From Bacteroidales bacterium (GTDB lineage: Bacteria; Bacteroidota; Bacteroidia; Bacteroidales; FEN-979), in contig JBBQUQ010000004.1 of the NCBI GenBank assembly GCA_038212325.1, forward strand, positions 154-64,153: a stretch of 64,000 nt of DNA, in the 5' to 3' direction. Position numbers and translations under genes: made by a program. Shown in pieces: positions 6,852 through 29,532 of this stretch (its first letter is position 1; each line of letters starts with the position of its first letter). Under the pieces are notes generated by a model, which saw nothing but the letters and a program-made list of their open reading frames with translations, was not told where the DNA came from and ran no database searches.

Positions 6852-6881
6852 AATGGTGAATAGCGAAATGGCGAAATCAAG
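6843..6881. repeat. Tandem 8-nt word array (AAATGGTG family), 5 degenerate units
   Basis: aaattgtg aaatggtg aatagcg aaatggcg aaatcaag. The array spans the stop codon at 6849-6851 and the ATG at 6853. Confidence 0.85.
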
Positions 6882-9354
6882 TAGCGCGGAGATGAAACAA
6901 AAACCAACCAAAAAACCATCAAGCCAGCCGGTTACCAGGCCGGCCGGTAAAAAAACGGAAAACAAAACGTTCGAACGATACGCCCTTTGGATTACCCTTG
7001 GGCTGATTTCGGTTATAATCCTGGTCATTTTCTTCGATTTCATCATGGGGAACAGGTATTATTTGTTCAAGGACATCGGCAGTGATTCATTGAACGGATA
7101 TTATCCTTATATTCTCAACAGTGTAAGATATCTCGGGGAAGAGGGCTTTCCCCGGTGGTCATTTGCGATGGGCATGGGACAGTCGATCTATCCCGGCAGC
7201 TTTGGGGATCCCTTTGCGTTTATCATTAACCTGATGGGTACGCAAAAGGTTGCCTACGGGATCATATTATCCGATATCAGCAAGTATATCGTAACCTGCT
7301 GGCTCTTCTTTCTCTACCTGAGGCTGCTGAACCTGAGTAAGACTTCCGCAATGATTGGTTCACTCTTATTTTCCCTGTCGGGATTCATGGTCGTAGCCGG
7401 AAGCTGGTACACTTTTTCCTTAGAGGTGGTTTACATGGCTTTTTTATTGTTTGCTTTTGAGAAACTTTACAAACAAAACAACTGGTTTTTTTTCCCCATC
7501 GCCATTGCCCTGATCGGCATGTATGTGCCATTCAACATTTACCTGTACGGTCTTTTCCTGATCATTTATATGATATTCCGTTTTTTAACCGATGACACTC
7601 CTCGTTTTAAAAATTTCCTTTCCCTGGTTTTGAAAATGGCGGGATTGACCATACTCGGGCTGTTAATCGGTTCTGTCTTTTTCATTCCAAACTTACAACG
7701 TTTGATTGACAGTCCGCGGGTAACCGGAAATTCCTCGTATTTCATGACCCTGATGAGCAAGCCGGTTTTCAGCCTGGCATCGCACGATCACTATGTCACA
7801 TCCATCATGCGCGCCTTTGGAAACGATCTCATTGGTAACGGCAGCAATTTCAAAGGATGGTACAACTACCTCGAAGCGCCATTATTTTATATCGGATTGC
7901 TCCCCTTGCTTCTGTTCACGCAAGTATTTTCCCTTATTGGCCGCAGGAAAAAAATCATCTATGCAGTTTTCCTGGTGATTTACCTGGTTCCCGTGATCTT
8001 CCCATTTTTCCGCAACGCTTTCTGGGCCTTCACCGGTGATTATTACAGGGGGTTTTCCCTCTTTTTTTCATTTATACTGCTGCTATTCAGCCTGCAGGTG
8101 ATCAGCGAGCTTGACAAAGGCAAAAAGGTTAACCTGGTGATTTTGCTGATCACAACCGGTGTGTTGCTGGTGATGCTTTATTATCCTTATCAGAATATCG
8201 ACCAGGTTATCAGGAAAGACCTGCAATCGGTGGTAATGATCTTTCTTTTCCTCTATGCGATTGTTCTCCTGCTGTTTAATTTTATTGAGAACAGGGCAGT
8301 GTTAAAGACAATACTGGTGCTCCTTGTATGTACAGAACTGATCTATTTTAATGGGAAAACCGTAAGGGAAAGAGATACAATCACCCGCACCGAATGGCAG
8401 CAAAAAGCCGGGTACAATGATTATACAGTTGATGCAGTATCCTGGCTCGGGGATATTGACAAGGGTTTTTTCAGGCTCAACAAGGACTACTCCTCGGGGC
8501 CTGCCATTCATCGCAGCGTGAACGATGCACTGGTGCAGGACTATTATGGCACTCCTTGCTACAGTTCGTTCAACCAGAAATACTATATCCGGTTCCTCGA
8601 AGAGGCGGGGGTGATCGAGAAAGGCAGGGAGGACCAGTCACGCTGGGCCCGTGGATTGTCGGAGCGGCCATTGCTCCAAATCATGGGGAGTGTCAAATAC
8701 AATCTCAGCACCAGGGACAGGTCCTTTTTCCAGAATATGGGGTACGATTCCATCAACAAATTCGGAAATGTAAAATTGCTGAAGAACCGTTATTTCATGC
8801 CGCTCGGATACACATACGACCGTTACATCCCTATAAGCCTGTTCCGGAAACTATCCATGGCGCAACGTGATTTTGCATTGCTGCAAGCCTTTATTGCCGA
8901 GGAACCCATTGACCCGGCTTTTTCCGCCCTGAAGGAATTCACCATCGGCGACACCACCAAATCACTTACTTTTGAGGAGGTATCAGCAGATGTAAACGAT
9001 CGAAAAGCCGACACCTTGCAAATCACCTCTTTTTCCGACAACCACATCAGCGGAAAGATCAGCCTGAAAGAAGCCAGGGTGCTGTTCTTAAGCATCCCAT
9101 ATGACAAAGGGTGGAAGGGGATGATCGACAACAAACTGCAGGAGCCATCCCTGTGCAACGCCGGGTTTCTCGGCTTTTATCTTGGCAAGGGGGATCACAC
9201 CATTCAACTCGATTACGGGGTGTATCATATGGCACTCAGCGTATGGCTTTCGTTGGCCGGCATTGTGATTTTAGTTCTACTGGCTCTATACAGGTACCGG
9301 GCAACCCTGATTGGGAAGATAATAAAACCAGAAAATGTGAAACATTCTTCATAA
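6853..9354 (+). CDS. YfhO-family GT-C membrane glycosyltransferase
   Basis: A large polytopic protein. The C-terminal extracytoplasmic block (SIPYDKGWKGMIDNKLQEPSLCNAGFLGFYLGKGDHTIQLDY) plus a final TM is characteristic of YfhO. The start is uncertain because codons 1-13 are repeat-encoded; an alternative ATG is at 6892. Confidence 0.7.
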   Translation: MVNSEMAKSSSAEMKQKPTKKPSSQPVTRPAGKKTENKTFERYALWITLGLISVIILVIFFDFIMGNRYYLFKDIGSDSLNGYYPYILNSVRYLGEEGFPRWSFAMGMGQSIYPGSFGDPFAFIINLMGTQKVAYGIILSDISKYIVTCWLFFLYLRLLNLSKTSAMIGSLLFSLSGFMVVAGSWYTFSLEVVYMAFLLFAFEKLYKQNNWFFFPIAIALIGMYVPFNIYLYGLFLIIYMIFRFLTDDTPRFKNFLSLVLKMAGLTILGLLIGSVFFIPNLQRLIDSPRVTGNSSYFMTLMSKPVFSLASHDHYVTSIMRAFGNDLIGNGSNFKGWYNYLEAPLFYIGLLPLLLFTQVFSLIGRRKKIIYAVFLVIYLVPVIFPFFRNAFWAFTGDYYRGFSLFFSFILLLFSLQVISELDKGKKVNLVILLITTGVLLVMLYYPYQNIDQVIRKDLQSVVMIFLFLYAIVLLLFNFIENRAVLKTILVLLVCTELIYFNGKTVRERDTITRTEWQQKAGYNDYTVDAVSWLGDIDKGFFRLNKDYSSGPAIHRSVNDALVQDYYGTPCYSSFNQKYYIRFLEEAGVIEKGREDQSRWARGLSERPLLQIMGSVKYNLSTRDRSFFQNMGYDSINKFGNVKLLKNRYFMPLGYTYDRYIPISLFRKLSMAQRDFALLQAFIAEEPIDPAFSALKEFTIGDTTKSLTFEEVSADVNDRKADTLQITSFSDNHISGKISLKEARVLFLSIPYDKGWKGMIDNKLQEPSLCNAGFLGFYLGKGDHTIQLDYGVYHMALSVWLSLAGIVILVLLALYRYRATLIGKIIKPENVKHSS

Positions 9355-9395
9355 TTTTAAGCACGAAATAACTTATCCATTTAAAAGAAGATTTT

Positions 9396-10403
9396 ATGAT
9401 TAAATTAGGCATTATTGGCTACGGGTACTGGGGTCCGAACCTGGTCAGAAACTTCTCAGGCAATAAAAACTTCGAGGTAAAAAAGGTCGCTGATACCAGG
9501 CAGGAGCGGCTCGACCTGGTTAAAAAACAATATCCATCCATCATCACAGTGCTGGATTCATCTGATATTCTCAACGACCCCGACATTGATGCTGTTGCCA
9601 TCGCAACACCCGTTTTTGCGCATCATGCGCTGGCTAAAGCAGCCCTTTCAAACGGCAAACACGTTGTATTGGAAAAACCCATGACATCGTCGTCGGCGGA
9701 AGCAGAAGAGCTGATCAATCTTTCTATGGCTAAAGGTTTATCGCTGATGGTTGATCACACCTTCCTGTATACGGGGGCAGTGCAAAAAATCAAGCAACTG
9801 ATTGACCAGGATACGATCGGCCACATCAAATACCTTGATTCGACCAGGATCAACCTGGGTTTGTTTCAGCCGGACATCAACGTTTTGTGGGACCTTGCAC
9901 CTCATGATATCTCGATACTTACACACCTGGTCGGTGAAAAACCATACAGCCTGAATGCTTCAGGTATTTCACACACGAACAACGGACTGGAGAATATTGC
10001 TTTCCTGACAGTGAATTTTGAATCCGGGTTTATTGCACATTTCAACTGTTCGTGGACATCGCCGGTAAAAATCAGGCTGATGCTGATTGGAGGAGATAAA
10101 AAAATGATTGTTTTTAACGACGTTGAGCCTACGGAGAAAATAAAGATATACGATACCGGGTATACCGTTAAGAATGATGAGGATAAGCAAAAATTGCTGG
10201 TGGACTACCGAAGCGGAGATATTTTCATTCCCAAAACCCCGTCCACCGAAGCATTGGCACTGATGGCTGAAGATTTTGCCCAATCAATCCTGGACAAGAA
10301 AACACCTGTGGCAGATTTCAACTCCGGGCTTTCGGTCATCAAGATTCTTGAAGCATCGAATGAGTCACTTAAAAACCGGGGGAAAGAGATCATCCTCAAA
10401 TAA
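9396..10403 (+). CDS. Gfo/Idh/MocA-family sugar-nucleotide 3-dehydrogenase (WbpB/WlbA/GnnA-like)
   Basis: N-terminal Rossmann motif IGYGYWGPNLVRN and the EKPM motif (VVLEKPMTSS). It lies directly upstream of an LbH acetyltransferase and a DegT aminotransferase. Confidence 0.8.
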   Translation: MIKLGIIGYGYWGPNLVRNFSGNKNFEVKKVADTRQERLDLVKKQYPSIITVLDSSDILNDPDIDAVAIATPVFAHHALAKAALSNGKHVVLEKPMTSSSAEAEELINLSMAKGLSLMVDHTFLYTGAVQKIKQLIDQDTIGHIKYLDSTRINLGLFQPDINVLWDLAPHDISILTHLVGEKPYSLNASGISHTNNGLENIAFLTVNFESGFIAHFNCSWTSPVKIRLMLIGGDKKMIVFNDVEPTEKIKIYDTGYTVKNDEDKQKLLVDYRSGDIFIPKTPSTEALALMAEDFAQSILDKKTPVADFNSGLSVIKILEASNESLKNRGKEIILK

Positions 10404-10413
10404 TTATTCATTT

Positions 10414-10905
10414 ATGGAAATATTAAACATCGATCAACCAAGGCAGGCATTGCGGAATGTAAAGGTCGGCAAGGATGTCAGGATTTTCAATTTTGTAAAT
10501 GCCTATGAATGCTCCATTGACGATGGCAGTAAAATAGGTGCCTTTGTCGAAATTCAAAAGAATGTTATCATCGGCAAGAACTGTAAAATATCAAGTCACA
10601 CCTTCATTTGCGAAGGAGTAGAGATCGACGACAATGTGTTCATCGGGCATAATGTCACCTTCATTAACGACAAGTATCCCAGGGCGACAAATCCTGAGGG
10701 GGGGTTGCAGACGGAGGCGGACTGGAAGGTTGAACGTACCTTCATTAAAAAGGGGGCATCAGTAGGCTCCTCCTCCACCATCCTGTGCGGTGTGACCGTT
10801 GGCGAGAATGCCATTGTGGGAGCCGGCAGCATTGTGACCAAAGATATTCCTGCCAATGCGGTTGTGGCGGGTAATCCCGCACGGATCATCCGCTCCCTAA
10901 AATAA
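10414..10905 (+). CDS. Left-handed beta-helix N-acetyltransferase (WbpD/WlbB/QdtC-like)
   Basis: Hexapeptide repeats run throughout (IGKNCKISSHTFICEGVEIDDNVFIGHNVTF...VGENAIVGAGSIVTKDIPANAVVAGNPARI). The ATG at 10414 is 10 nt after the preceding stop. The track ORF start at 10276 overlaps the upstream gene. Confidence 0.8.
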   Translation: MEILNIDQPRQALRNVKVGKDVRIFNFVNAYECSIDDGSKIGAFVEIQKNVIIGKNCKISSHTFICEGVEIDDNVFIGHNVTFINDKYPRATNPEGGLQTEADWKVERTFIKKGASVGSSSTILCGVTVGENAIVGAGSIVTKDIPANAVVAGNPARIIRSLK

Positions 10906-10929
10906 TTATAACGCTAACAACTTAACTTT

Positions 10930-12033
10930 ATGGACTCCAAAAAAATTCCTTGTCTTGACCTGAAGGGGCAGCACCAGCTTATAAAAGATGAAGTTTTTGC
11001 CCAATTTGAAAAAGTATTCGAAAATACCGCCTTTTCTGGCGGTCCGTTCGTGGCAGCCTTTGAAGAGGCCTTTGCAAAATTCTGCGGAACCCGTTATGCC
11101 GTCGCGGTAAACAGTGGCACCTCCGCCCTGCACCTGGCCATGCTGGCCCTTGGCATCGGAACGGGCGATGAAGTGATCATTCCGGCGAACACCTTCATTG
11201 CAACCCCCTGGGGGCCCTCATACGCAGGCGCCACCCCGGTATTTACGGACTGCACTCCCGACACGTGGGAAATTGATCCTGCAAAAATCGAAGCCCGGAT
11301 AACGGCAAAAACAAAAGCCATCATCGGGGTTCACCTTTACGGCCAGCCTTTCGACGTAGATGCCGTAACGGAGATTTGCCGGAAACACAACCTGTTTTTG
11401 ATTGAGGATGCGGCACAGGCACACGGTGCGAAATACAAAGGAACCAGGGTGGGTGGTTTTGGCGAAATGGCCTGCTTCAGCTTTTATCCCGGAAAAAATT
11501 TAGGTGCCTGCGGAGAGGGCGGCGCCATCACCACAAACAACGAATCCTACTACAAGCACCTTCAAAGTTTGCGCAACCATGGCAGTGCAGAACGGTATTA
11601 CCATGACGAAATCGGTTATAATTACAGGATGGGCGGACTGGAAGGAGCATCACTCAAAGTTAAGCTGCAATACCTGGAGGGATGGAACAACCGCCGGAGG
11701 GAGATTGCAAAGCGCTACCTGGCTGAAATTAATAATCCTAAAATCAAGATGCAACTGCAGCCTGATCAGACGCAGTCTGTTTTTCATCTGTTTGTTGTGA
11801 CCTGTGAGGAGAAAGATGCTTTCGTGAAGTATTTAACGGAACACAACATCATTCCTGCTTTTCATTACCCGGTACCATGCCATCTGCAAAAAGCCTACGC
11901 ACATCTGAATTACAAAAAAGGTGATTGCGTGCATGCTGAATACCTGGCAGAAAATTGCATTTCGCTGCCCATGTTTGCCGAGCTGAATGAGGAGGATGTA
12001 AGCACCGTGATCAAGGCAGTTAACAGCTTTTAA
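10930..12033 (+). CDS. DegT/DnrJ/EryC1/StrS-family PLP aminotransferase (WbpE/WlbC-like)
   Basis: Typical family sequence: AVNSGTSALHLA, DAAQAHGA, and SFYPGKNLGACGEGGAI with the PLP lysine. Confidence 0.9.
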   Translation: MDSKKIPCLDLKGQHQLIKDEVFAQFEKVFENTAFSGGPFVAAFEEAFAKFCGTRYAVAVNSGTSALHLAMLALGIGTGDEVIIPANTFIATPWGPSYAGATPVFTDCTPDTWEIDPAKIEARITAKTKAIIGVHLYGQPFDVDAVTEICRKHNLFLIEDAAQAHGAKYKGTRVGGFGEMACFSFYPGKNLGACGEGGAITTNNESYYKHLQSLRNHGSAERYYHDEIGYNYRMGGLEGASLKVKLQYLEGWNNRRREIAKRYLAEINNPKIKMQLQPDQTQSVFHLFVVTCEEKDAFVKYLTEHNIIPAFHYPVPCHLQKAYAHLNYKKGDCVHAEYLAENCISLPMFAELNEEDVSTVIKAVNSF

Positions 12034-16839: not shown

Positions 16840-17295
16840 TTAGTTTTCTTTCAGGATAAAGTCGTCATATTCCACCTCAAAAGCCAACTTGTGCTTTGAT
16901 TCTTCCTGGGCAAGATTTAAAAACAGCGTTTTTACTTCGGGATCGTCTGCCTTGTTAGCCAGCAATGTGTACATTCTGAACGCGGCTTTCTCCTTTTTCA
17001 TGGCCAGTATCAGGGCATCCTGGTACGACATATTGGCCGATGGCTTAACATCGACAAGATATTCAGCGATTTTAAGGTCCCTTACCTTTGAATCGGGCAA
17101 TTTGAAGCTGCCGCTTTCCCTGATGGCTAAAAGATTTGCCTTATGGCGCATCTCTTCTGCCGCATAATCATTGAATATCTTTTTTGTCTGCTGGTTTTTT
17201 GACTGGACTGCCAACTGCAGGTAAAAATCTACGGCTGCCTGCTCCTCCCCGATGGCAAAATCGAGGATCTCATTTATGGTGTTGAACTCTCTCAT
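16840..17295 (-). CDS. Rubrerythrin/ferritin-like diiron protein without a rubredoxin domain
   Basis: Two E...EExxH half-sites (EEQAAVDFY...AAEEMRHK and AQEESKHK). No CxxC pairs. Confidence 0.7.
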   Translation of the reverse strand: MREFNTINEILDFAIGEEQAAVDFYLQLAVQSKNQQTKKIFNDYAAEEMRHKANLLAIRESGSFKLPDSKVRDLKIAEYLVDVKPSANMSYQDALILAMKKEKAAFRMYTLLANKADDPEVKTLFLNLAQEESKHKLAFEVEYDDFILKEN

Positions 17296-17300
17296 TGGAT

Positions 17301-17335
17301 TTACGAATTACGGATTACAAATTACGGGTTAACTC
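17301..17335. repeat. Tandem heptamer array, TTACRRR x5
   Basis: ttacgaa ttacgga ttacaaa ttacggg ttaactc. The array fills the 19-nt spacer between 17295 and 17315 and runs into the 3' end of the upstream CDS. Confidence 0.8.
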
Positions 17336-20300
17336 TTCTTCAAAGCGCATGGTTACTGCATCGCATCCATGGTAATAATGACGTTTGTTATTGTCTTCTT
17401 TGGTCGGACGCATGAGCAGTTTGCCATGCTCTTTTTTAGCAGGCAGCAGGGCGATGATTTCCACGAAAATATCGCAGGGTCTATCAGGGGTAATGATTCC
17501 CAGTTCCTTGAGAATTCCTGCGATTTGTTCCAAAGATGACCTCTGGGGGCGGGGATTCATGACTTTTTCGAATTCCTGGATAACTTTCTGCGCATTTGTG
17601 AAGGTCCCTCCTGTTTCCCATGGGAATGAAGCCGGCAGCAACAGATCGGCAGCTTTGGCTGTGTCCGTTAAAAAGTAATCCTGCACCACCTTGAAGGAAG
17701 CACAGGCCAATATTTTTTCGATGGCCTTGCGGTCAATGGCGCAACCCACCGGATCCTCCCCGAAAATAAACAGGTTGCTGACCACCCCTTCGTTGAGCAT
17801 CCCATGCAGGCAGTCGGTTTCTGCCGTGGCCAATTCAGCCACTCCCCATTTTTCCTTCAGGGCCTTCATATAATCCTGGTCGGCAAGTTCCTGCCCTCCA
17901 ATGCCCAGATGCGGGCTTACGCCCATGTCGAACAGCCCCTGCGAATTATTCTTCTCCTTCAAGGCAATCAGTCCATTGGCTGTTTTACCCAACTTGCCTG
18001 TGATCCGGGCAAGGTTGAACAGCTCCTTTGAGGTATTCCCTGATACTTCCTTCTCAGAGAAGATGAGGATGGCATTCATTTCATTGTTATAGGCTTCGGC
18101 GAAGGCTGCAATTTCATCAGATGATATCCCTGTCGATTTGACCAGCGTGTTGAAATCCTCTTTCAGAAGCATGGCTTTATACCCTTCAAAACCCTCAACC
18201 CGGTCGCGCAGGAAGAGCGCATTCTCCAGTCCTTTCGAGAGCAGGTAATGGTTTACAGCCTTGACAAAATGGTAGTAGGATTTCACGACGGTTTGACGGC
18301 TCACCTTGTGCGCCATAGAGTTGACGGCCTTTTCAGTTACCATGATGACCGGCGTTTTATTGAGGTAATGAGCATTCTGAACCATAAATCCGACTACCGC
18401 ATGATCCTTATTCAATTCAGTTCCGAGAAGATAAATCGCACTTGCATCGCCAATTTCAGCAAAAGGGGCATTGAGTTCGCAATTAGTGCGGTACCCCTCT
18501 CCCCTTCCAAGGTAATGGAAACTGCCGACATTGTTGGTCTTTGCGCCGGCACGCGCCAGTTTATGAACCAGGTAGAGTTCTTCATTCGACAGCCTTGCGC
18601 CCCCAAAGAAGGCATTTTCACCCGGGCCGACCGACCTGATTTTTTCGCTGATAAGCATATAAGCCTTCTCAAAGGAAATCTCTTCAAACTTCCCGCCGAC
18701 CTTCAGCATCGGTTTTGTGATGCGGCTGATATCATTGAGGTACCCGTATCCAAATTTCGGGTATTTGCAGATATTTCCATCGCGGTTGATGAGCCCGTTT
18801 TTACCGGTCACTCCCAGCACAAAACCATTTTTGTGGTGCAGGTCAATGGTACATCCCACCGAGCAGTAGTTGCAAATGGAATCAACGGCATGGGACTGCA
18901 CCGGGCCCGGCTTGAACAATACATTCTCGGTGATGGCGCCCGTGGGGCAAGTTGAGATGCACATTCCGCACGATTCGCAATTCGTATCCTGTAGCGCTTC
19001 GCCCATGCCGGGAGACACGTATGTGTGAAACCCGCGATTGATCAGCCCGAGCGCATTGGCTCCGACCACTTCGCGGCAAATGCGCACGCAACGCGCGCAC
19101 AGGATGCACTTATTGTTGTCGATCTCAATATATGGATGGCGAAAATCGACCTGGTATTCCCGAAATTCACCCTCGAAGGATGTTTGCCGGGCATTGTAAT
19201 CACTTGAATATTTCTGCAGATCGCAATCGAAGAAAGCAACACATCCGCATTCCAAACAACGTTGGGCTTCATGGTGAGCAACTTCAGCGCCTTCATAGCC
19301 CAATTCAACCTCGTTGAAATTAAACCGGTCACCTGCAGGCAGGGTAGGCATTTCCTCGCGAACCTGTGTCTCAAATCCTCCGAGGTAGGACTCCTTCTCC
19401 TGCTTTTTGAAATTGTCGCGCCTGCTTGTAAAGGGTTTTTTGAGCGGCTGAACGGGCAACCCCGACAAAAACTGGTGTGCGCTGGTGGAAGCAATTCTTG
19501 CCTGCGCAATGGCTTCGATAATGGTGGCGGGGCCAGTAACCCCGTCGCCGGCGGCAAACATCGAAGGAATCCCTGTTTGCAGGGTTGCCTTATCGGCATC
19601 GATATCTCCCCATTTATTGATCTTCAACTCACCATTTACAGCGTTGGCATTGATGTCGTCGATGAAATCAACGTCGGTTTTCTGGCCGATGGCTGCCAGG
19701 ATGTAGTCGACTTCCAGTTCGAAATCGGAACCCTCCACCGGAACAGGGCGGCGGCGTCCGGATGCATCGGGCTCACCAAGTTCCATTTTAATGCAGGTGA
19801 CAGATGCGACCTCCCCGCTGGCATTTTTGTTAATCTTTTTAGGCAGGGTGAGAAACAGGTATTCCACCCCTTCGAGCTTCGATTCATGGATCTCTATCGG
19901 GTTTGCCGGCATCTCTTTTTCGGTGCGGCGGTAGATTACATAAACTTTGTCGGCTTTGCAGCGGATTGAAGTGCGGCAGCAGTCCATGGCAGTGTTTCCG
20001 CCACCGACCACTGCGATGGTTTTACCCCGGAAATCATACCGCTGACCGGTTATCTCCATGTTTTTCAGGAAATCGATCCCTGAGAAAACATTGCCGGCTT
20101 CGTCGCCTTCACAGCCGACTCCTGTCCCTTTTTGCGAACCAATGGTGAGAACGGTTGCATCATACCTGGATACGAGATCCTTGTAGCTGATATTTTCGCC
20201 CAGCCGCTTGTTATAAAAAATATTGACGCCCAGATCGGTAATATTCTTCACCTCCTGGTCGAGGATATCATTGGGGAGGCGATATTCGGGTATGCCATAT

Positions 20301-21010
20301 CGCAGCCAGCCGCCCGATTTAGGCGCTGCTTCAAAAATATCAACCTGGTGTCCCTCTATCTGCATGAAATGGCCCACCGACAAACCTCCGGGTCCTGCCC
20401 CGATCACGGCAACCTTTTTACCGGTTGACGGCTTCACGTCCGGAATATATTTATCCGGTGAGGCAAGGTCGTAGTCGGAGGCGAAGCGCTTCAGGTAATC
20501 AATGCCCACTGGGGAGCCTTCGTCGAGCAGATTGCGCCGGCATTCTGATTCACAAGGTCTCACGCAAACGCGGCCGCAGATGGCTGGCAAGGGGTTTGTA
20601 TCCTTGATCAGGGCAACCGCTTCGCTATACTGCCCCTTGTCGATCAGAGAAATATATCCCTGTACATCAACACCTGCGGGGCATGTTTGCCTGCAAGGGC
20701 CGATGCAGTCGGCGTAATGGTTGCTCAGCATCAGTTCCAGCGCTATCTTCCGCGATTTATGTATCTCTTCATTGTCGGTTATGATCTTCATTCCCTCCGT
20801 TAGCCTTGTGGAACAGGAGGGCTGGTGGCCGCGCATACCTTCCACCTCTACCACGCAAACATAGCAGGAGGTAAATGGTTCGAGGCGGTCGTCGTTGCAT
20901 AAGGTTGGGATTTTAACCCCATGGCGGGTTGCCAGGGTCAGAATTGTTTCGCCGGGAAAGCCTTTAACAATGTTGCCGTTGAGTATGATGTTTAATGAAT
21001 TGTCAGCCAT
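17315..21010 (-). CDS. Fusion subunit: [2Fe-2S] ferredoxin, GltD/NfnB-type NADPH-FAD module, NuoG-type [4Fe-4S] clusters, and a degenerate molybdopterin-oxidoreductase-like domain (BfuA/StnC-like)
   Basis: The start MADNSLNIILNG is at 21010; upstream codons of the track ORF are repeat-encoded. The NuoG-like N-terminus contains LCNDDRLEPFTSCYVCVVEV. GltD motifs are CRQTCPAG, KKVAVIGAGPGGLS and IAVVGGGNTAMDC. CILCARCVRIC and CESCGMCISTCP are [4Fe-4S] motifs. CNYCSVGCTIDLHH is the Mo-enzyme-type Fe4S4 motif. Confidence 0.8.
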   Translation of the reverse strand: MADNSLNIILNGNIVKGFPGETILTLATRHGVKIPTLCNDDRLEPFTSCYVCVVEVEGMRGHQPSCSTRLTEGMKIITDNEEIHKSRKIALELMLSNHYADCIGPCRQTCPAGVDVQGYISLIDKGQYSEAVALIKDTNPLPAICGRVCVRPCESECRRNLLDEGSPVGIDYLKRFASDYDLASPDKYIPDVKPSTGKKVAVIGAGPGGLSVGHFMQIEGHQVDIFEAAPKSGGWLRYGIPEYRLPNDILDQEVKNITDLGVNIFYNKRLGENISYKDLVSRYDATVLTIGSQKGTGVGCEGDEAGNVFSGIDFLKNMEITGQRYDFRGKTIAVVGGGNTAMDCCRTSIRCKADKVYVIYRRTEKEMPANPIEIHESKLEGVEYLFLTLPKKINKNASGEVASVTCIKMELGEPDASGRRRPVPVEGSDFELEVDYILAAIGQKTDVDFIDDINANAVNGELKINKWGDIDADKATLQTGIPSMFAAGDGVTGPATIIEAIAQARIASTSAHQFLSGLPVQPLKKPFTSRRDNFKKQEKESYLGGFETQVREEMPTLPAGDRFNFNEVELGYEGAEVAHHEAQRCLECGCVAFFDCDLQKYSSDYNARQTSFEGEFREYQVDFRHPYIEIDNNKCILCARCVRICREVVGANALGLINRGFHTYVSPGMGEALQDTNCESCGMCISTCPTGAITENVLFKPGPVQSHAVDSICNYCSVGCTIDLHHKNGFVLGVTGKNGLINRDGNICKYPKFGYGYLNDISRITKPMLKVGGKFEEISFEKAYMLISEKIRSVGPGENAFFGGARLSNEELYLVHKLARAGAKTNNVGSFHYLGRGEGYRTNCELNAPFAEIGDASAIYLLGTELNKDHAVVGFMVQNAHYLNKTPVIMVTEKAVNSMAHKVSRQTVVKSYYHFVKAVNHYLLSKGLENALFLRDRVEGFEGYKAMLLKEDFNTLVKSTGISSDEIAAFAEAYNNEMNAILIFSEKEVSGNTSKELFNLARITGKLGKTANGLIALKEKNNSQGLFDMGVSPHLGIGGQELADQDYMKALKEKWGVAELATAETDCLHGMLNEGVVSNLFIFGEDPVGCAIDRKAIEKILACASFKVVQDYFLTDTAKAADLLLPASFPWETGGTFTNAQKVIQEFEKVMNPRPQRSSLEQIAGILKELGIITPDRPCDIFVEIIALLPAKKEHGKLLMRPTKEDNNKRHYYHGCDAVTMRFEEELTRNL

Positions 21011-21017
21011 TTGATAG

Positions 21018-21120
21018 AAATTGTGAGATGGTGAAATTGTGAGATGGTGAAATAGTGAAATTGTGAGATGGTGAAATTGTGAGATGGTGAAATAGTGAAA
21101 TGGTGAAATAGTGGTGAAAA
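21018..21120. repeat. Tandem 8-nt word array (AAATGGTG family), 12 units with a 40-nt higher-order repeat x2
   Basis: The block (aaattgtg agatggtg aaattgtg agatggtg aaatagtg) occurs twice, at 21018-21057 and 21058-21097, then aaatggtg aaatagtg gtgaaaa. The array fills the 110-nt intercistronic spacer. Confidence 0.95.
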
Positions 21121-22896
21121 TTAAGATAGAAGTATGGATTCGAATTTGCATTTTGAAAAGCAGACCCCGCATTTGGTGCAGATCTCCTGGTTGATGAAGT
21201 GTGTTTGCTTCCGCTCGCCGGTAATTGCTTTCACAGGGCAGTTCTTAAGGCACACCATGCAACCTGTGCATTTTTCCTCATCCACCTTATAGGTCAGCAG
21301 CGGTCGGCACACTTTGGCCGGGCACTTTTTGTGGTTGATATGGGCTTCATATTCATCCCTGAAATATTTGATGGTGGTGAGAACCGGGTTCGGTGCTGTT
21401 TGTCCCAGCCCGCACAGCGAGTTATCCTTGATCTGGTATGCAAGTTCTTCCAGTTTTTCAAGGTCTCCCTCCCTGCCATGCCCATAGGTAATGCGATCGA
21501 GGATTTCAAGCATGCGCTTGGTCCCCATGCGGCAGAAGGTGCATTTGCCGCAGCTCTCCTTGCAGGTAAAATCGAGGAAGAACTTGGCCACATCGACCAT
21601 GCAGGTGGTTTCGTCCATCACAACCATCCCGCCCGAGCCCATGATGGCGCCGGTGGCATTGACCGAATCATAATCGACGATGGTGTCGGACAGGTACTCG
21701 GGGATACAACCTCCTGAGGGACCGCCCATCTGAACTGCCTTGAACTTTTTGTTGTTTTTGATGCCGCCGCCCAGCTTAAAAATGACATCGCGGATGGTCA
21801 TCCCCATCGGGACCTCGACCAGCCCTGAGTGGCACACTTTGCCGGCCAGTGCAAATACCTTGGTCCCCTTGCTCTTCTCTGTGCCATACTGGGCATATGC
21901 CTCGGCGCCGTTGATGATGATCCAGGGGATGTTGGCAAACGTTTCGACATTGTTGATGTTCGTCGGCTTCTTCCACAGTCCCGAAACGGCTGGGAATGGC
22001 GGGCGTTTGCGCGGCATTCCGCGTTCTCCTTCGATAGAGGCTATGAGTGCTGTTTCTTCTCCGCATACAAAAGCCCCGGCTCCCTCCTTGATGTAGATAT
22101 CGAGGTTAAACCCTTCGATCCCGAATATATTCTTCCCCAGGTATCCTTTCTCATGTGCCTGCTTGATGGCGATGTTCAACCGTTTGATGGCCAGAGGGTA
22201 TTCGGCGCGGCAGTAAATCACCCCGCCGGTAGCTTCGATGGCATAGGCCGCAATGATCATTCCTTCGAGCACCGAATGCGGGTCGCCTTCAAGAACCGAC
22301 CGGTCCATAAATGCACCGGGGTCGCCTTCATCGGCGTTGCAGATCACATATTTATCGGCCGATTTGTTGGCATTCGCAAACTTCCATTTCATGCCGGTCG
22401 GAAACCCTCCGCCACCGCGGCCGCGCAATCCCGATTTGAGAATCGTGTCGATCACCGCTTCGCGGCTGGTTTTTGCTTCAGCTATCATTTTAATGGCTTT
22501 GTAGCCATCCCGGGTTTCATATTCATCAATGGATTCGGGGTCCATATACCCGCAGTTCCGCAGCACGATTTTCACCTGCGCCCCGATAAAATCATTTTCC
22601 GGGGCATCAAACAAATCGGTGCACACGATGTAATCGCGGATGGGGTCCTGCTGGTTGATATGCTTTTCGATGACTTCGACGGCGCGGTCGGCGTCGACTT
22701 CACCATACAAGTAAGTCCCTGTTTCATCGGTGATCTCAACCAGGGGCTCGCGGTAGCACATGCCGACGCAACTGGTTTTCTTGAGTATGAAATCGAGCTT
22801 ATCCGATTCTTTCAGTGCTTTTATCTTATCATAGGTCTTGTTTGCACCCGCTGCGATGCCGCAGCTTCCAAGTCCGACGGTGACGATTGTAGGCAT
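21121..22896 (-). CDS. NuoF-like NADH/FMN subunit with extra N-terminal [2Fe-2S] and C-terminal 2x[4Fe-4S] domains (HydB/BfuB-type)
   Basis: GRGGGGFPTGMKW is the FMN site and ESCGKCTFCR is the N3 cluster. The N-terminus (GSCGIAAG...CVGMCYREP) is thioredoxin-like. The C-terminus has CTGCMVCLKNCP and CTKCGVCFSKC. Confidence 0.9.
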   Translation of the reverse strand: MPTIVTVGLGSCGIAAGANKTYDKIKALKESDKLDFILKKTSCVGMCYREPLVEITDETGTYLYGEVDADRAVEVIEKHINQQDPIRDYIVCTDLFDAPENDFIGAQVKIVLRNCGYMDPESIDEYETRDGYKAIKMIAEAKTSREAVIDTILKSGLRGRGGGGFPTGMKWKFANANKSADKYVICNADEGDPGAFMDRSVLEGDPHSVLEGMIIAAYAIEATGGVIYCRAEYPLAIKRLNIAIKQAHEKGYLGKNIFGIEGFNLDIYIKEGAGAFVCGEETALIASIEGERGMPRKRPPFPAVSGLWKKPTNINNVETFANIPWIIINGAEAYAQYGTEKSKGTKVFALAGKVCHSGLVEVPMGMTIRDVIFKLGGGIKNNKKFKAVQMGGPSGGCIPEYLSDTIVDYDSVNATGAIMGSGGMVVMDETTCMVDVAKFFLDFTCKESCGKCTFCRMGTKRMLEILDRITYGHGREGDLEKLEELAYQIKDNSLCGLGQTAPNPVLTTIKYFRDEYEAHINHKKCPAKVCRPLLTYKVDEEKCTGCMVCLKNCPVKAITGERKQTHFINQEICTKCGVCFSKCKFESILLS

Positions 22897-22903
22897 ATTA
22901 TCT

Positions 22904-22925
22904 GTTTACGAGTTAAGAGTTACGA
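22904..22925. repeat. Short tandem GTTACGA-like word array (3 units)
   Basis: gtttacga gttaaga gttacga, in the 34-nt spacer between the NuoE-like stop and the NuoF-like start. Confidence 0.7.
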
Positions 22926-22930
22926 TTTTA

Positions 22931-23449
22931 TTAATTTTTTTCAGCCAGCCGGATGTTTTTAATGATTTTCACAGCCTCGTTGCCTGTGAGTTTACCGTAG
23001 GTCTGGTCGCCGATCATCATCACCGGGGCCAGGGAGCAGCATCCCAGGCAGGCGACCGACTCGAGGGTAAAGAACCGGTCTTCGGTGGTTTCCCCGTCTT
23101 TCACCTTCAGTGCCTCTTCGATCGATTCGGTGATCTCCACTGCGTTCTGCACATGGCAGGCGGTGCCGTGGCATACTTTGATGATGTTCTTGCCAACCGG
23201 GCTGAGGCGGAACTGAGCGTAAAAAGTGGCTACGCCAAACATGTCGCTTAACGGAATGCCCGTTTCCCTCGACAGCTTATCAAATGCAGCTTTTGAGATG
23301 TAGCCATATAATTCCTGTGCTCCCTGCAAAAGAGGTATCATGTTTCCTTTTTTGCCTTTGTGCCTGGCAATAATCGGATCGAGGAGGCTGAGATCCAGCA
23401 AATCCCCGTTGATTTCTGGTTTGTTCGTTTTGATTCGTGCAATCCGCAT
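22931..23449 (-). CDS. NuoE-like thioredoxin-fold [2Fe-2S] subunit (HydC/BfuC-type)
   Basis: Cluster ligand motifs CHGTACHV and CLGCCSLAPVMMI. The family pattern IPLLQGAQELYGYIS is also present. Confidence 0.9.
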   Translation of the reverse strand: MRIARIKTNKPEINGDLLDLSLLDPIIARHKGKKGNMIPLLQGAQELYGYISKAAFDKLSRETGIPLSDMFGVATFYAQFRLSPVGKNIIKVCHGTACHVQNAVEITESIEEALKVKDGETTEDRFFTLESVACLGCCSLAPVMMIGDQTYGKLTGNEAVKIIKNIRLAEKN

Positions 23450-23474: not shown

Positions 23475-26400
23475 TTACTGCAATGGCTGCCAGGTTACGA
23501 CCGATATTCTTTTTTTTCCATCCATTCGCACAACCAGGGGCTTGTCGAACTTCACGATTGAAAAATAATTGGTCTTCCTGATATTTTGCTGCTGTTTCAG
23601 TACTTCATATCGGATGAAGCTGTCGGACAATTCGGGCTGAACGCAGAAATAGCCCACATTCATGGAGGTGACATTGTGGAAAAAATGGGATCCGGAGGAT
23701 GCATCCAGCGGAAAACCTTCAAGGCTGGTTTCAACGATCACCTTGGCATTGCTGATCTGGGGCCAAACAACAGGGATTCCGATCCAGCGGTCGCGGGTGC
23801 CCCAGCGTCCGGGGCCAATCAGGATATACTTCTTCCCGGCCTTGCCCATCTCTGAATTAATCTTGTCGATCTCTTCGGCCATTTCGACTGTTTTGCTTTT
23901 ATCGAAGGTGTCGGGGTCAACAAAAACTACCTCGTCGATCGAATCAATCATCCCATTACCCATCTCCTTTTCCGAATAGAGGAGGATGTCATCTTTCGGG
24001 ATAGTATCCATTTCAATAACGAAATCGGCCACGTTTCCGATCAGCGGCTTGATTTGGAGGAGGTAAAATGATGCCTTGTAATTATCGTCCTTGTTCAGGT
24101 CGATGGCAAATTCTATTTCTACCGGGGAGCCGAGTGCCTCTTTCACCACATCGAGCACCACCTCGATGGTTTTGGCCATGGGGATGTAGTTGTATTTCAG
24201 GATGTCGGCGAAGTTGACGACCCTTGGCCCGTTGTCACGCAACCCTGCCGAAATACGCTCATTTTCAAGTGAATATACTGATGCCAGGTGCTTCAATGTG
24301 CCATGCATTTCTGCATCGTAAATGTCGAGTTTTCGCAGTCCGGCATCTTCTCCTTCCAGCAGGTTTACATCCTTTTTTTTTAGGTCGACGGCATAAAAAT
24401 AGACCTGCGACCCTTTGTACTGGTCTTTGGCTGAATTGATTTCGAGGGTCGGATACATCGGGGCAAAGCGAAAAGCCTTCTCCCCTTCCACAACATAGCG
24501 CCCAAGCCCCAGCGCCGCCACCGCAAAACCCTCTTCAGGTTTCATGTGGGCAAAGGGATAGTAGTTGAAGGATTGCGCAACGCCGCTGATGTGGGGATAA
24601 AAGACATCCTCGTATTGGTGGCCCACCACCTCCTGGACCACAACAGCCATTTTCTCCTGTTCGATGCGGTAGTTAACGGCTTCGATATATCCTTTTGCAA
24701 CGGGCGAATAGACCGAAGCATAAACCAGTTTGATGGCATCCATCAATTGATCGAGCCTGATCCTTGGATCGGGATGGTTGTTCGGGATCAGGTACGTCTC
24801 AAAAATGCCGGCAAACGGCTGATTTTGTGAATCTTCAAATAGTCCCGACGATCGGATGGCGAGTGGCTTGGTGATATTCTTGATGATGAGCTTCAGTTTA
24901 CGGATCAGGGTTTCGGTGAGCTTGCCTTCGATAAACCAGCGTTTGATGAGATCGTAATCGGATTCAAAGACCGCCTTCTCCCGCAACTTGTTCCGGTCGA
25001 GGAAGTACTCAAACTCATCGGTGCCGATGATGGACGTTTTCGGTGTACGGATGTTGATATTGGGCACATGCTGTGCAAAATCATAATTATAAATCAGGGT
25101 GTTGACAAATGCAAGTCCTCTGCCTTTTCCGCCCAGGGCGCCTTCGGTAAGCGCAAGAATGTTATGTTCATCCGCGATGGCCGATTCCTCAAAGGGGATG
25201 ACCTTCCCGATATTTTGTTCATTCCTGAAGTTCTGAATCACATTGAACAGGTATTCGCGAAGTGATGCGGGGTCTCTGAAGTCGGTGACTTTGGCAGGAT
25301 TAAGTATCTTGGCCACCTGGATTTCTCCGCGGGCCATAAGCCAGAGGGAGAAATGGTCCTTACGGGCATGATAGAGCAACGACTCTTCGGGGATGGTCTT
25401 CAACAGGTCTTCAAACTCCTTAAGCGATTTGGCGACCGCAATCTGCCCGCCTTCCTTGTCGCGGTATATAAAATTCCCGAATCCCAGGTAGTGGGTGATG
25501 AAGCTCCTGAAATCGACCAGTAGGGTTTCAGAATTCTTATTGATAAAAGAGGCCTTGAGTTCATAGGCTTTCTCCACATTGTGCTCATCCGACGACTGGA
25601 GCACGATGGGCAGGTCGGGGAGTTCTTTCCTTGTTTGCCTGACCAGGCTGAAACCGGCAGAATCGTTCAGCTTGCCATCCTTTTTGAACTTTACATCAGA
25701 GATCAGGCAGAGTATGTTATCCCTGTATTTATTGAAAATAAAGATCGCCTCCTCAAAAGTTGACGCCAGCAGGATCTTTGGGCGTGCCTTCAGGCGCAGA
25801 ATGCGGTAAAGCTCGTCGGTGGTCACATCCTCGATGATGTTTTTTGTCTGTTCAAGCACGATGTTGTAGAGCATCGGCATGTAAAGCGAATAATATTTCG
25901 ATGAATCTTCCACCAGCAGGATTACCCTCACCATCCCGATCGTGGTATCATTCTCCACATTGATCTTATCTTCAAGGTAATTGATCATGGCGAAGAAAAT
26001 TTTCGAGTCGCCGTTCCATACAAAGATGCGATCGATCCAGGTCAGTTTTTCGGGCTCCTCCTCGTAAACAGCAATATCTGAGTTGCTGTTAAGCAACAGG
26101 AATACCGGAATATACTGATATTGATCCTTTACTGTTTTACTGAGGTCCAGCGGAAATTGCTTATCGGTGCCGATCATGATGATGATCAGGTCGTAATGTT
26201 TGGCATTGAGCTGCTCCATCACCTCCGCGGAGGTAGATACCCCGGTGATGCGCGGCATGGTACTCAGGCTGAGTGAATAGAACTCGCCCAGCACATGTTC
26301 TGAAAACCGGCCCTCCTTCTCGATGCTGTAGGCATCGTACAAATTGGCCACCAGCAGGATTTCCTTGACTTTAAAAGGCATCAGGTCGTGGTAAAGGTCG

Positions 26401-27350
26401 CGGTTATAATTCGTGCGGTTAAGGAATGTCTGAAGAAGCTGGCGGCTGTATTTCACCGGTACCGACGGATCGGCAGGTATGATCCCGGCATCCTTATGTA
26501 CTGATTTCTTCAGTATCGCTTTGCCTTTTATCGAATTAAGGTAGCCGGTGATAATGTTTGCCAAATTGATAATCAGATGGCGCTCTTCTTCGAGGAAAGG
26601 GCCCTCGAAAGAGGTCTGAAATGCTTTCAGATAACAAATCTGGATGTATCCATTCTGGTTATCAATGGTTTCGAAAGTTTGTTTCTGCGACCATTCCGTT
26701 TCACGAAATGCGGGCGTTTTCAATTCAACATTGCCATATTTGATTCGGCAAACGGTATATTCAGGGTATTGCCAGGCCCTGGGCAGGATCAGGCATATCT
26801 GGTGCAGGGCTTCCTCAATCGGCTTGCCGGTGCGAAGGATGGCTGTCGTTTGATTGATCGCTGTCAACTCCTTCAGCCGTTCACGTGTAATATACCGGCC
26901 TTCGCGGCCTTTCACGCCATTGAGATAGCCTTCGACCAGGCTGGCAAGGTTCACGACCAGGTTGCGTTCCTCTTTCAGGAAAGGGCCCTCATCATAATTC
27001 TGGAACTCGTTCAGATAACAGATGGTGATGGTTCCAGCCAGGTTATCGATGGTGTCGAAAGGCTGTTCCTGCTTCCAGGCAGTTTCCAAAAAGCCGGGGG
27101 TGGTAAATTCCATCTCCTCAAAGCGTATCCTGGCCACGGTAAATTCAGGATACTGCCAGGCCCGGGGGAGGATCTGGCAAATTTCGTGCAGGGTTTCCGG
27201 GATTGACTTCCCTGATTTGATGATGGCCGTGGTATCATTTATTGCGGCCAATTCCTTGAGACGTTCCCGGTTATTGTAAACCAGTTGGGTTAAATCGATC
27301 GGTTCGGGAATAAGGTTCCCGGTCTTATTGTTGTCGTCGGTGGGCAGCAT
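23475..27350 (-). CDS. Multidomain signalling enzyme: two tandem GAF-like repeats, a pseudo-receiver, a receiver (REC), a PPDK_N-type PEP/pyruvate-binding ATP-grasp domain, and a conserved C-terminal domain of unknown function
   Basis: Residues ~25-150 and ~155-280 are clear duplicates (RERLKEL(A/T)AIN(D/Q)TTAI...LPRAWQYPE(F/Y)TV...GPFL(K/E)EER). The REC domain shows ILLVEDS...CLISDVKF...LQSS...INKNS. The ATP-grasp motif is GALGGKGRGLAF. I see no GGxTSHAA-type phospho-His swivel motif. Confidence 0.7.
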   Translation of the reverse strand: MLPTDDNNKTGNLIPEPIDLTQLVYNNRERLKELAAINDTTAIIKSGKSIPETLHEICQILPRAWQYPEFTVARIRFEEMEFTTPGFLETAWKQEQPFDTIDNLAGTITICYLNEFQNYDEGPFLKEERNLVVNLASLVEGYLNGVKGREGRYITRERLKELTAINQTTAILRTGKPIEEALHQICLILPRAWQYPEYTVCRIKYGNVELKTPAFRETEWSQKQTFETIDNQNGYIQICYLKAFQTSFEGPFLEEERHLIINLANIITGYLNSIKGKAILKKSVHKDAGIIPADPSVPVKYSRQLLQTFLNRTNYNRDLYHDLMPFKVKEILLVANLYDAYSIEKEGRFSEHVLGEFYSLSLSTMPRITGVSTSAEVMEQLNAKHYDLIIIMIGTDKQFPLDLSKTVKDQYQYIPVFLLLNSNSDIAVYEEEPEKLTWIDRIFVWNGDSKIFFAMINYLEDKINVENDTTIGMVRVILLVEDSSKYYSLYMPMLYNIVLEQTKNIIEDVTTDELYRILRLKARPKILLASTFEEAIFIFNKYRDNILCLISDVKFKKDGKLNDSAGFSLVRQTRKELPDLPIVLQSSDEHNVEKAYELKASFINKNSETLLVDFRSFITHYLGFGNFIYRDKEGGQIAVAKSLKEFEDLLKTIPEESLLYHARKDHFSLWLMARGEIQVAKILNPAKVTDFRDPASLREYLFNVIQNFRNEQNIGKVIPFEESAIADEHNILALTEGALGGKGRGLAFVNTLIYNYDFAQHVPNINIRTPKTSIIGTDEFEYFLDRNKLREKAVFESDYDLIKRWFIEGKLTETLIRKLKLIIKNITKPLAIRSSGLFEDSQNQPFAGIFETYLIPNNHPDPRIRLDQLMDAIKLVYASVYSPVAKGYIEAVNYRIEQEKMAVVVQEVVGHQYEDVFYPHISGVAQSFNYYPFAHMKPEEGFAVAALGLGRYVVEGEKAFRFAPMYPTLEINSAKDQYKGSQVYFYAVDLKKKDVNLLEGEDAGLRKLDIYDAEMHGTLKHLASVYSLENERISAGLRDNGPRVVNFADILKYNYIPMAKTIEVVLDVVKEALGSPVEIEFAIDLNKDDNYKASFYLLQIKPLIGNVADFVIEMDTIPKDDILLYSEKEMGNGMIDSIDEVVFVDPDTFDKSKTVEMAEEIDKINSEMGKAGKKYILIGPGRWGTRDRWIGIPVVWPQISNAKVIVETSLEGFPLDASSGSHFFHNVTSMNVGYFCVQPELSDSFIRYEVLKQQQNIRKTNYFSIVKFDKPLVVRMDGKKRISVVTWQPLQ

Positions 27351-27437: not shown

Positions 27438-27866
27438 CTACCTGGAAGCAGCCTGTTTCGGTATCATGGCCTGTGATACCTCATAGGGCATGACCAGGTT
27501 GCCGCATGCAACCTGCTTAAAAACGTTTTTCATGGTCTCTTTTTTCTCTGACTTGTTCAGAAATCCCATCACGCCCAGTTTAAACATTTTAACCTGCCAG
27601 CGAAGCGAATCCTCCATTGTAAGCACTACAATGGGTATTGAAGGGAATGCACTGCGCAGCCGCCTGAAATTTGATACCGGATCGGTATCATTGATAAACA
27701 GGTCGAGGACGATAATATCCGTTTGTGTTTCAGGAATTTTTTTCATGGCCTCCTCGATGTCATTCGCCGAACCGACCAGTCCGACCTCGTCAGATTCGGG
27801 GCTGAAAGCTTTGTATAATCCTTCTATGATCAGAAAATGATCATCTATTGCAAATAGTCCTACCAT
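27438..27866 (-). CDS. Stand-alone response-regulator receiver protein (CheY-like)
   Basis: Canonical REC residues: AIDDH, IIVLDLF (acceptor Asp), VVLTM and FLNKS. No output domain. Confidence 0.7.
   Translation of the reverse strand: MVGLFAIDDHFLIIEGLYKAFSPESDEVGLVGSANDIEEAMKKIPETQTDIIVLDLFINDTDPVSNFRRLRSAFPSIPIVVLTMEDSLRWQVKMFKLGVMGFLNKSEKKETMKNVFKQVACGNLVMPYEVSQAMIPKQAASR

Positions 27867-28158: not shown

Positions 28159-29532
<1,374 letters not shown>

Follow-up and report, generated by a model that had tools for sequence, protein, structure and literature searches.

The window analyzed here is a stretch of 64,000 nucleotides (nt) from contig JBBQUQ010000004.1 of a Bacteroidales bacterium, whose source is a sediment metagenome, and all positions are given in window numbering. 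It carries a three-gene cluster that very probably is the Bacteroidales orthologue of the Bfu-family transhydrogenase, an enzyme called StnABC in the Müller/Schuller nomenclature and NfnABC or Nfn-Bfu in the Adams nomenclature. The listing of open reading frames (ORFs) contains three adjacent ORFs, co-oriented on the minus strand and encoding a NuoE-like, a NuoF-like and a BfuA-type protein, at the same coordinates at which an earlier reading of this DNA (the original prediction) had proposed a Bfu/Stn-type soluble flavin complex:

22931-23449, minus strand: small subunit (StnA / NfnC / BfuC), a NuoE-like thioredoxin-fold [2Fe-2S] protein of 172 amino acids (aa)
21121-22896, minus strand: flavoprotein subunit (StnB / NfnB / BfuB), NuoF-like, with the flavin mononucleotide (FMN)/NAD site, 591 aa
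17315-21010, minus strand: large subunit (StnC / NfnA / BfuA), 1231 aa

We searched each of the three subunits against all PDB chains, and for each of them the three solved Nfn-Bfu complexes were the top three matches, with E-values down to 1e-260. These complexes are S. ovata StnABC (PDB 8oh5/8oh9; PMC7483475, PMC10482914), C. saccharolyticus NfnABC (PDB 9bov/9bp5) and T. sibiricus Nfn-BfuABC (PDB 9n5u; PMC12018979, PMC9304861). The large subunit matched 9bov_A (1178 aa) with 757 bits, 8oh5_C (1172 aa) with 716 bits and 9n5u_A with 602 bits, the NuoF-like subunit matched 8oh5_B, 9n5u_B and 9bov_B (869, 861 and 844 bits), and the NuoE-like subunit 9bov_C, 9n5u_C and 8oh5_A (182, 172 and 161 bits). 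The C. saccharolyticus enzyme is thus the top-scoring match for the large and NuoE-like subunits, and S. ovata StnABC, which the original prediction had named as the closest established analogue, is among the top three for every subunit. Both the assignment to the Bfu/Stn type and the choice of analogue are in agreement with these matches.

The ORF of the large subunit remains open upstream to position 21172. Since this extension consists only of translated intergenic tandem repeat, and homologues of the large subunit begin at the methionine of MADNSL or MSDNSL, 17315-21010 is the right gene model. The protein is composed of four parts:

20711-21010, minus strand: NuoG/HydA-type [2Fe-2S] domain, residues 1-100 (Pfam Fer2_4)
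19301-20710, minus strand: inserted GltD/NfnL-like NADPH-flavin adenine dinucleotide (FAD) module with two [4Fe-4S] clusters, residues about 101-570 (Fer4_20, Pyr_redox_2)
18899-19300, minus strand: NuoG-type Fe-S region, residues about 571-704 (Pfam Fer4_Nqo3)
17315-18898, minus strand: domain resembling formate dehydrogenase (Fdh-like), residues about 705-1231 (Molybdop_Fe4S4, Molybdopterin)

The individual Pfam matches cover residues 5-80 (Fer2_4), 104-504 (Fer4_20 plus Pyr_redox_2, GltD/NfnL-like), 626-694 (Fer4_Nqo3), 708-759 (Molybdop_Fe4S4) and 763-1154 (Molybdopterin), and the NCBIfam model PRK12814 ("putative NADPH-dependent glutamate synthase small subunit") matches residues 4-649 with 621 bits. 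The NuoG-type region holds the four-Cys cluster at the N5 position (CLECGCx5C), followed by a ferredoxin-like domain with 2x[4Fe-4S]. Pfam and NCBIfam therefore bear out the domain order that had been read from the sequence, and the motifs quoted with it (GAGPGGLS, VGGGNTAMDC, CNYCSVGC and TNNVGSFHYLGRG) are all present.

For comparison with S. ovata we used the proteins of the DSM 2662 locus (L084; stnA 5659-6228, stnB 6221-7972, stnC 7989-11507). In the alignment of the large subunit with StnC, all 26 cysteines that serve as ligands of its seven clusters are kept. The ligands of the N-terminal [2Fe-2S] cluster, C38, C49, C52 and C66, correspond to StnC C36, C47, C50 and C64. Also kept are cysteines 102, 106, 110, 149, 153 and 157 of the GltD module, C585, C588, C590 and C596 of the N5-position cluster, C635/638/641/645 and C678/681/684/688 of the 2x[4Fe-4S] domain, and C713, C716, C720 and C748 of the molybdenum-enzyme-type Fe4S4 motif. 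Conservation extends to two other functional residues, Lys174 (StnC K170, the lysine ligand of the FAD-proximal cluster) and Arg244 (StnC R239, the arginine at the FAD site). The GltD module aligns residue by residue to S. ovata StnC and to the NfnA proteins of C. saccharolyticus and T. sibiricus.

The published map of StnC (1172 aa) consists of a [2Fe-2S] domain at 1-101, a GltD part at 102-565, a NuoG part and an inactive FdhF-like part at 683-1172 (PMC10482914). C. saccharolyticus NfnA is described as having an N-terminal domain, an NfnL-like domain and an Fdh/NuoG-like domain, with seven clusters plus FAD (PMC11829005). Because both published proteins have it, the fused large subunit with an inactive Fdh-like tail is the canonical architecture of this enzyme. 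The suggestion that retention of a NuoG/Fdh-like C-terminal domain sets the window complex apart as a distinct variant does not hold, as StnC and C. saccharolyticus NfnA share that architecture.

The state of the Fdh-like tail was assessed by aligning E. coli FdhF to the C-terminal regions of 158 proteins of the family: 80 Bacteroidales-type sequences, among them the window protein, and 78 sequences, among them that of S. ovata, from loci recovered with StnC as the query. The FdhF motif quoted in the original prediction is right, the sequence being TNNVDCCARVUHG. The segment containing selenocysteine 140 (Sec140) and His141 is deleted in 158/158 homologues, the window protein and S. ovata StnC among them. 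The cysteines of the Fe4S4 motif persist across the alignment. The position of FdhF Arg333 is usually occupied by lysine (Lys in the window protein, Arg in StnC), and that of Lys44 is Tyr in the window protein. Neither GYNPADSHP nor CDPR nor GMGVTQ of FdhF is conserved in the window tail. A Pfam search of the large subunit did not find Molydop_binding (PF01568), the capping domain IV; past FdhF position 560 the window protein has 36 residues left, compared with 156 in FdhF, so that it stops roughly where domain IV of FdhF starts. This domain is absent from the 158 homologues examined.

Could the C-terminal domain nevertheless bind a molybdenum or tungsten bis-pyranopterin guanine dinucleotide cofactor (Mo/W-bisPGD) and catalyze a formate-type or oxo-transfer reaction, so that the protein would be part of a bifunctional Fdh-Nfn enzyme? 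The tail is 27% identical to residues 4-490 of FdhF and retains the motifs GEDP and VVQDYFLTDTAKAADLLLPAS of the second dinucleotide-binding domain. It also scores slightly higher against alpha subunits of genuine formate dehydrogenases (FDH) than against the tail of StnC (YjgC 172 bits, F420-FDH 171 and FdhF 154, vs 143.5 for StnC). The window tail is somewhat more FDH-like than that of StnC because the latter has lost additional stretches of the domain-II region; the difference is one of degree, and no active site is retained. Against catalysis stand the loss of Sec/Cys140-His141 in every homologue, the Arg333 to Lys and Lys44 to Tyr replacements, the loss of the three FdhF stretches and the missing domain IV, and StnC, which carries the same lesions, was reported to be catalytically inactive in this domain (PMC10482914). 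An active Mo/W site is therefore extremely unlikely. The alignment to FdhF revealed no intact Mo-bisPGD site, and the expectation that the protein is not a formate dehydrogenase is borne out by the deleted Sec140/His141, the lysine in place of Arg333 and the absence of domain IV.

The identity of the large subunit as a Mo/W formate dehydrogenase of the FdhF type was rejected on those same three features. When FdhF was compared with the window by tblastn, the large-subunit tail was the only match, and the rest of the window encodes no paralogue of any of the three subunits.

The NuoF-like subunit aligns over its full length to StnB residues 3-582 with 64% identity, and 23 of the 25 StnB cysteines are conserved, including those of both CxxCxxCxxxC motifs. 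The original prediction had assigned to this subunit an extra N-terminal [2Fe-2S] domain and a C-terminal 2x[4Fe-4S] domain. Pfam detects both, the former as a weak thioredoxin-like [2Fe-2S] match and the latter as two Fer4 motifs at 536-585, together with Complex1_51K and NADH_4Fe-4S. After the Nfn-Bfu complexes, the next PDB chains are the B subunits of bifurcating NiFe and FeFe hydrogenases (591-749 bits). The non-bifurcating proteins FdsB (393 bits) and Nqo1 (379 bits) are matched to residue ~524 only, stopping short of the C-terminal ferredoxin domain. The NuoE-like protein consists of a full 2Fe-2S_thioredx domain (Pfam, E 1.3e-48); it is 46-49% identical to S. ovata StnA and conserves the cluster cysteines C93, C98, C134 and C138. 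No cysteine that binds a cluster in StnA or StnB is lost.

An [FeFe] hydrogenase of the HydABC type was considered as a candidate and rejected, as Pfam found no Fe_hyd_lg_C domain and the six frames of the window contain no H-cluster L1/L3 signature. The claim that the complex is not a hydrogenase thus stands. No [NiFe] signature was found in any frame of the window either; the H-cluster and [NiFe] regular expressions gave only two loose chance matches, both to the short L2 pattern.

Patterns derived from the window protein, the large subunit, matched 313 species-representative genomes, and the best 80 of these 313 were used as the Bacteroidales loci for comparison. Almost all of the 80 are Bacteroidales metagenome-assembled genomes (MAGs), with 62-89% identity, and they include Prolixibacteraceae, Draconibacterium-like and Lentimicrobiaceae members. 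The NuoE-like, NuoF-like and large-subunit triplet is kept in 80/80 of these loci, contig ends permitting. A maximum-likelihood tree was built from the N-terminal ~760 residues of the large subunit, with support from the Shimodaira-Hasegawa-like approximate likelihood ratio test (SH-aLRT) and T. sibiricus NfnA as outgroup. The phylogeny obtained shows the Bacteroidales type, including the window protein, to be monophyletic (SH-aLRT 100) and sister to a clade, again with SH-aLRT 100, that unites S. ovata StnC and C. saccharolyticus NfnA with the remaining sequences from the StnC search. The C. saccharolyticus enzyme differs from that of the window in belonging to this clade, which contains the Firmicutes enzymes. 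Nfn-type BfuB has already been listed for Bacteroidetes by Schut et al. 2022 (PMC9304861), and therefore the window enzyme is an ordinary new, uncharacterized clade member of a known enzyme family.

The titles of several records disagree with where their sequences fall on the tree or with their nearest relatives. This concerns L050 (Thiohalospira) and L022 (Alphaproteobacteria), which carry Bacteroidales-type gene clusters, and L100 (Methylocystaceae), L130 and L160 (both Bacteroidaceae), which carry Firmicutes-type ones. For these five loci, mis-binned MAG contigs are a more likely explanation than gene transfer.

Four points weigh against assigning the window complex to the StnABC/NfnABC family. 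The large subunit shares only about 40% identity with StnC (40% in a global alignment, 36% by blastp), the stem branch leading to the Bacteroidales clade is long (0.84 substitutions per site), and this clade is biochemically uncharacterized. In addition, StnC C114 is replaced by Val116 in the window protein; the active T. sibiricus NfnA also has Val at this position. C114 has been proposed to act with K170 in tuning the proximal cluster, that is, as a modulator and not as a ligand.

The long branch of an uncharacterized clade leaves room for a non-bifurcating enzyme, which could be an NADPH:NAD+ transhydrogenase, an NADPH:ferredoxin reductase or an NADPH-dependent sulfur/polysulfide reductase, the activity first reported for the related T. 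litoralis NsoABCD, and NsoC has been named among the closest homologues of StnC (PMC10482914). However, all features linked to bifurcation in solved homologues are kept, namely the NuoE-like [2Fe-2S] subunit and the N-terminal and C-terminal 2x[4Fe-4S] domains of the NuoF-like subunit, and the latter scores 675-869 bits against bifurcating enzymes but 379-393 bits against FdsB and Nqo1. We consider a non-bifurcating function improbable and favor the bifurcating transhydrogenase.

Among named systems, S. ovata StnABC resembles the window complex in its subunits and gene order. The likeness of StnC extends to the domain order, including the inactive FdhF-like tail, to all Fe-S ligands, K170 and R239, and to the deleted Sec-His segment and absent domain IV. 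The window large subunit is about 60 aa longer than StnC, owing to FDH domain-II/III elements that the Bacteroidales type retains and StnC has lost. The genomic context differs as well: stn adjoins hdr/mvhD/metF-like genes, whereas the window cluster adjoins genes for a PPDK_N protein and an erythrin-like protein, and gdhA. The S. ovata genes in question, at L084 625-5518, are hdrA-like, mvhD-like and methylene-tetrahydrofolate-reductase-like and immediately precede stn.

T. sibiricus Nfn-BfuABC, a biochemically confirmed NADPH:ferredoxin/NAD+ bifurcating enzyme (PMC12018979, PMC9304861), has the same GltD module and BfuBC core as the window complex. This archaeal NfnA is monomeric, some 200 aa shorter and without the cysteines for one of the ferredoxin-like clusters; the window protein has the full bacterial set of clusters. 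The classical NfnAB/NfnSL enzymes (P. furiosus 5jca, T. maritima 4ylf) carry out the same overall reaction as the Stn type, and their NfnB/NfnL subunit is a homologue of the GltD-like module, which scores 330 bits against 4ylf_B and 275 bits against 5jca_L. However, their quaternary structure and bifurcation site are unrelated, and the window contains no NfnA/NfnS subunit. The proximal cluster has a Lys ligand in the Stn type and a Glu ligand in classical Nfn, and the FAD of the Stn type is not the bifurcating flavin.

A mechanism for the window complex can be proposed from the solved homologues. NADP(H) would bind at the FAD of the GltD-like module, where NADPH would reduce the FAD, and single electrons would then pass along the clusters of the large subunit to the FMN of the NuoF-like subunit. 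The predicted order of this chain is the Lys-ligated [4Fe-4S] cluster, the second GltD cluster, a ferredoxin-like cluster, the [2Fe-2S] cluster and the four-Cys N5-position cluster. The FMN with its neighboring clusters would be the site of bifurcation. One route would lead to the reduction of NAD+, and the other would run via the mobile [2Fe-2S] cluster of the NuoE-like subunit and the C-terminal 2x[4Fe-4S] domain of the NuoF-like subunit to ferredoxin (Fd). The expected reaction would be 2 NADPH + NAD+ + Fd(ox) <-> 2 NADP+ + NADH + Fd(red). Fermenting Bacteroidales probably use the NADPH-forming direction, for example to feed the NADP-specific glutamate dehydrogenase GdhA encoded next to the cluster.

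The Fdh-like C-terminal domain would act as a non-catalytic scaffold with two off-path clusters. In the solved bacterial enzymes this domain mediates tetramer assembly, and the window complex may be assembled in the same way. The C1 and C2 clusters of StnC have been described as an off-path "evolutionary remnant" needed for tetramer assembly (PMC10482914), and the A4/A5 clusters of C. saccharolyticus NfnA as a dead-end side branch (PMC11829005).

Examination of the genomic neighborhood revealed the following features around and within the cluster:

16840-17295, minus strand: erythrin-like diiron four-helix-bundle protein, 151 aa (Pfam Rubrerythrin, E 6e-16)
21017-21113, no strand assigned: intercistronic tandem repeat of 8-nt words, 40-nt unit x2.4 (TRF)
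23475-27350, minus strand: 1291-aa protein with a C-terminal PPDK_N (ATP-grasp) domain (Pfam PPDK_N, E 9e-39)
27438-27866, minus strand: stand-alone response-regulator receiver (Pfam Response_reg)
28174-29532, plus strand (divergent): NADP-specific glutamate dehydrogenase gdhA (NCBIfam PRK09414)

The erythrin-like gene begins 19 nt past the stop codon of the large subunit, on the same strand. Its product consists of the rubrerythrin domain alone, with no rubredoxin domain, and the nearest PDB entries, 2fzf and 1vjx, are uncharacterized ferritin-like diiron-carboxylate proteins. The diiron ligands E18, E48, H51, E102, E132 and H135 are at least 95% conserved among 56 orthologues. The gene is located downstream on the same strand in 51 of the 71 Bacteroidales loci whose sequence extends far enough on that side, and in 0/80 of the loci recovered with the StnC query. 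The co-oriented rubrerythrin-like gene of the original prediction is thus a real, lineage-specific neighbor, but adjacency alone does not make the complex a new variant.

The position of this gene raises the possibility of a Bfu enzyme that detoxifies peroxide or oxygen, in which the erythrin-like protein would dock on the Fdh-like domain and take electrons from the dead-end branch, coupling the oxidation of NAD(P)H and/or ferredoxin to the reduction of H2O2 or O2. Besides the close spacing, the retention of the gene in most Bacteroidales loci and its conserved diiron ligands, two published observations are in its favor. Schut et al. 2022 predicted a similar enzyme, Rub-Bfu, from a rubrerythrin encoded directly downstream of BfuB (PMC9304861), and the StnABC literature (PMC10482914) describes the role of the off-path clusters as unclear. 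However, the predicted Rub-Bfu has no BfuA, whereas the window encodes a complete NADP(H)-binding one. The erythrin-like gene is missing in 20/71 Bacteroidales loci and in all 80 StnC-query loci, its product lacks any Fe-S domain, rubredoxin included, that could receive electrons, and operons of anaerobes commonly carry small ferritin-like genes as passengers. A detoxifying enzyme of this kind is therefore a doubtful reading of the locus, with a low probability.

The locus shares with the predicted Rub-Bfu (PMC9304861) a rubrerythrin-family gene directly downstream of a Bfu cluster. It differs in having a complete Nfn-type BfuA between BfuB and this gene, and in that the downstream protein is rubredoxin-less and erythrin-like. 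As a complete BfuA is present and the erythrin-like gene follows BfuA rather than BfuB, Rub-Bfu itself was ruled out.

The PPDK_N protein gene stops 25 nt upstream of the NuoE-like gene, and a homologue is found in 54/80 Bacteroidales loci, mostly upstream and on the same strand. The 1291-aa protein contains two duplicated N-terminal repeats of ~130 aa, and Pfam found in it neither the phosphohistidine domain (PEP-utilizers) nor domains binding phosphoenolpyruvate (PEP) or pyruvate. This protein may regulate the redox operon. In a wider version of the detoxification proposal, the PPDK_N giant protein, the NuoE-like, NuoF-like and NfnA-like subunits and the erythrin-like diiron protein would form a conserved five-gene module in Prolixibacteraceae-like Bacteroidales, with the erythrin-like protein as a fourth functional partner accepting electrons from the dead-end branch. 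Such a module would explain what the off-path clusters are for and couple the balancing of NADPH and ferredoxin to peroxide/oxygen detoxification, but we give this proposal little credence. In the window, the receiver gene precedes the PPDK_N gene; it was found in only 6/80 related loci.

The divergent gdhA gene scores 769 bits against PRK09414 (cutoff 536). In Bacteroidales it is located upstream of the cluster and occurs in at least 28/80 loci, a count for which detection may have been restricted by the 8-kb flank. In loci of the Syntrophomonas type (L091, L093, L095, L096 and L100), gdhA instead comes directly after the large-subunit gene. Since gdhA is adjacent in two unrelated arrangements, that of Bacteroidales and the Syntrophomonas type, this association supports an NADP(H)-centered role of the complex and suggests a physiological link to ammonium assimilation. 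The PPDK_N, erythrin-like and divergent gdhA neighbors are specific to the Bacteroidales lineage.

Sugar-modification genes are found downstream of the cluster. Pfam searches of ten further large ORFs at 30-64 kb identified housekeeping, transport and secretion genes and no redox partner. Scans for sigma-70 promoters and intrinsic terminators performed no better on the sequence than on shuffles; these scans are ill-suited to Bacteroidota and were not used.

The spacer that separates the NuoF-like gene from that of the large subunit is filled by the tandem repeat. Among Bacteroidales relatives, the length of this spacer varies between less than 25 and about 340 nt, and short tandem repeats of unrelated sequence are frequent there, as compared in L014, L018, L020, L022-L025, L028 and L054. 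The repeat words in these relatives include CAAT, CTCACCAA, TGTACA, TTTACGA, CTGAAAC and GAAACAAG. This spacer is a recurrent hotspot for short-repeat expansion.

The finding mainly corrects annotation, in that proteins matching the glutamate synthase small subunit, FDH alpha, NuoE and NuoF in Pfam and NCBIfam are subunits of a transhydrogenase. It places an uncharacterized and well-separated clade beside three solved enzymes, and the window complex adds nothing new on mechanism. Judging from the genes found in 313 genomes, an electron-bifurcating NADH/ferredoxin:NADP+ transhydrogenase is apparently common in Bacteroidales of anaerobic sediments and freshwater. StnABC/NfnABC balances NADH, ferredoxin and NADPH in anaerobes, and its presence matters for models of redox and energy metabolism in Bacteroidales fermenters.

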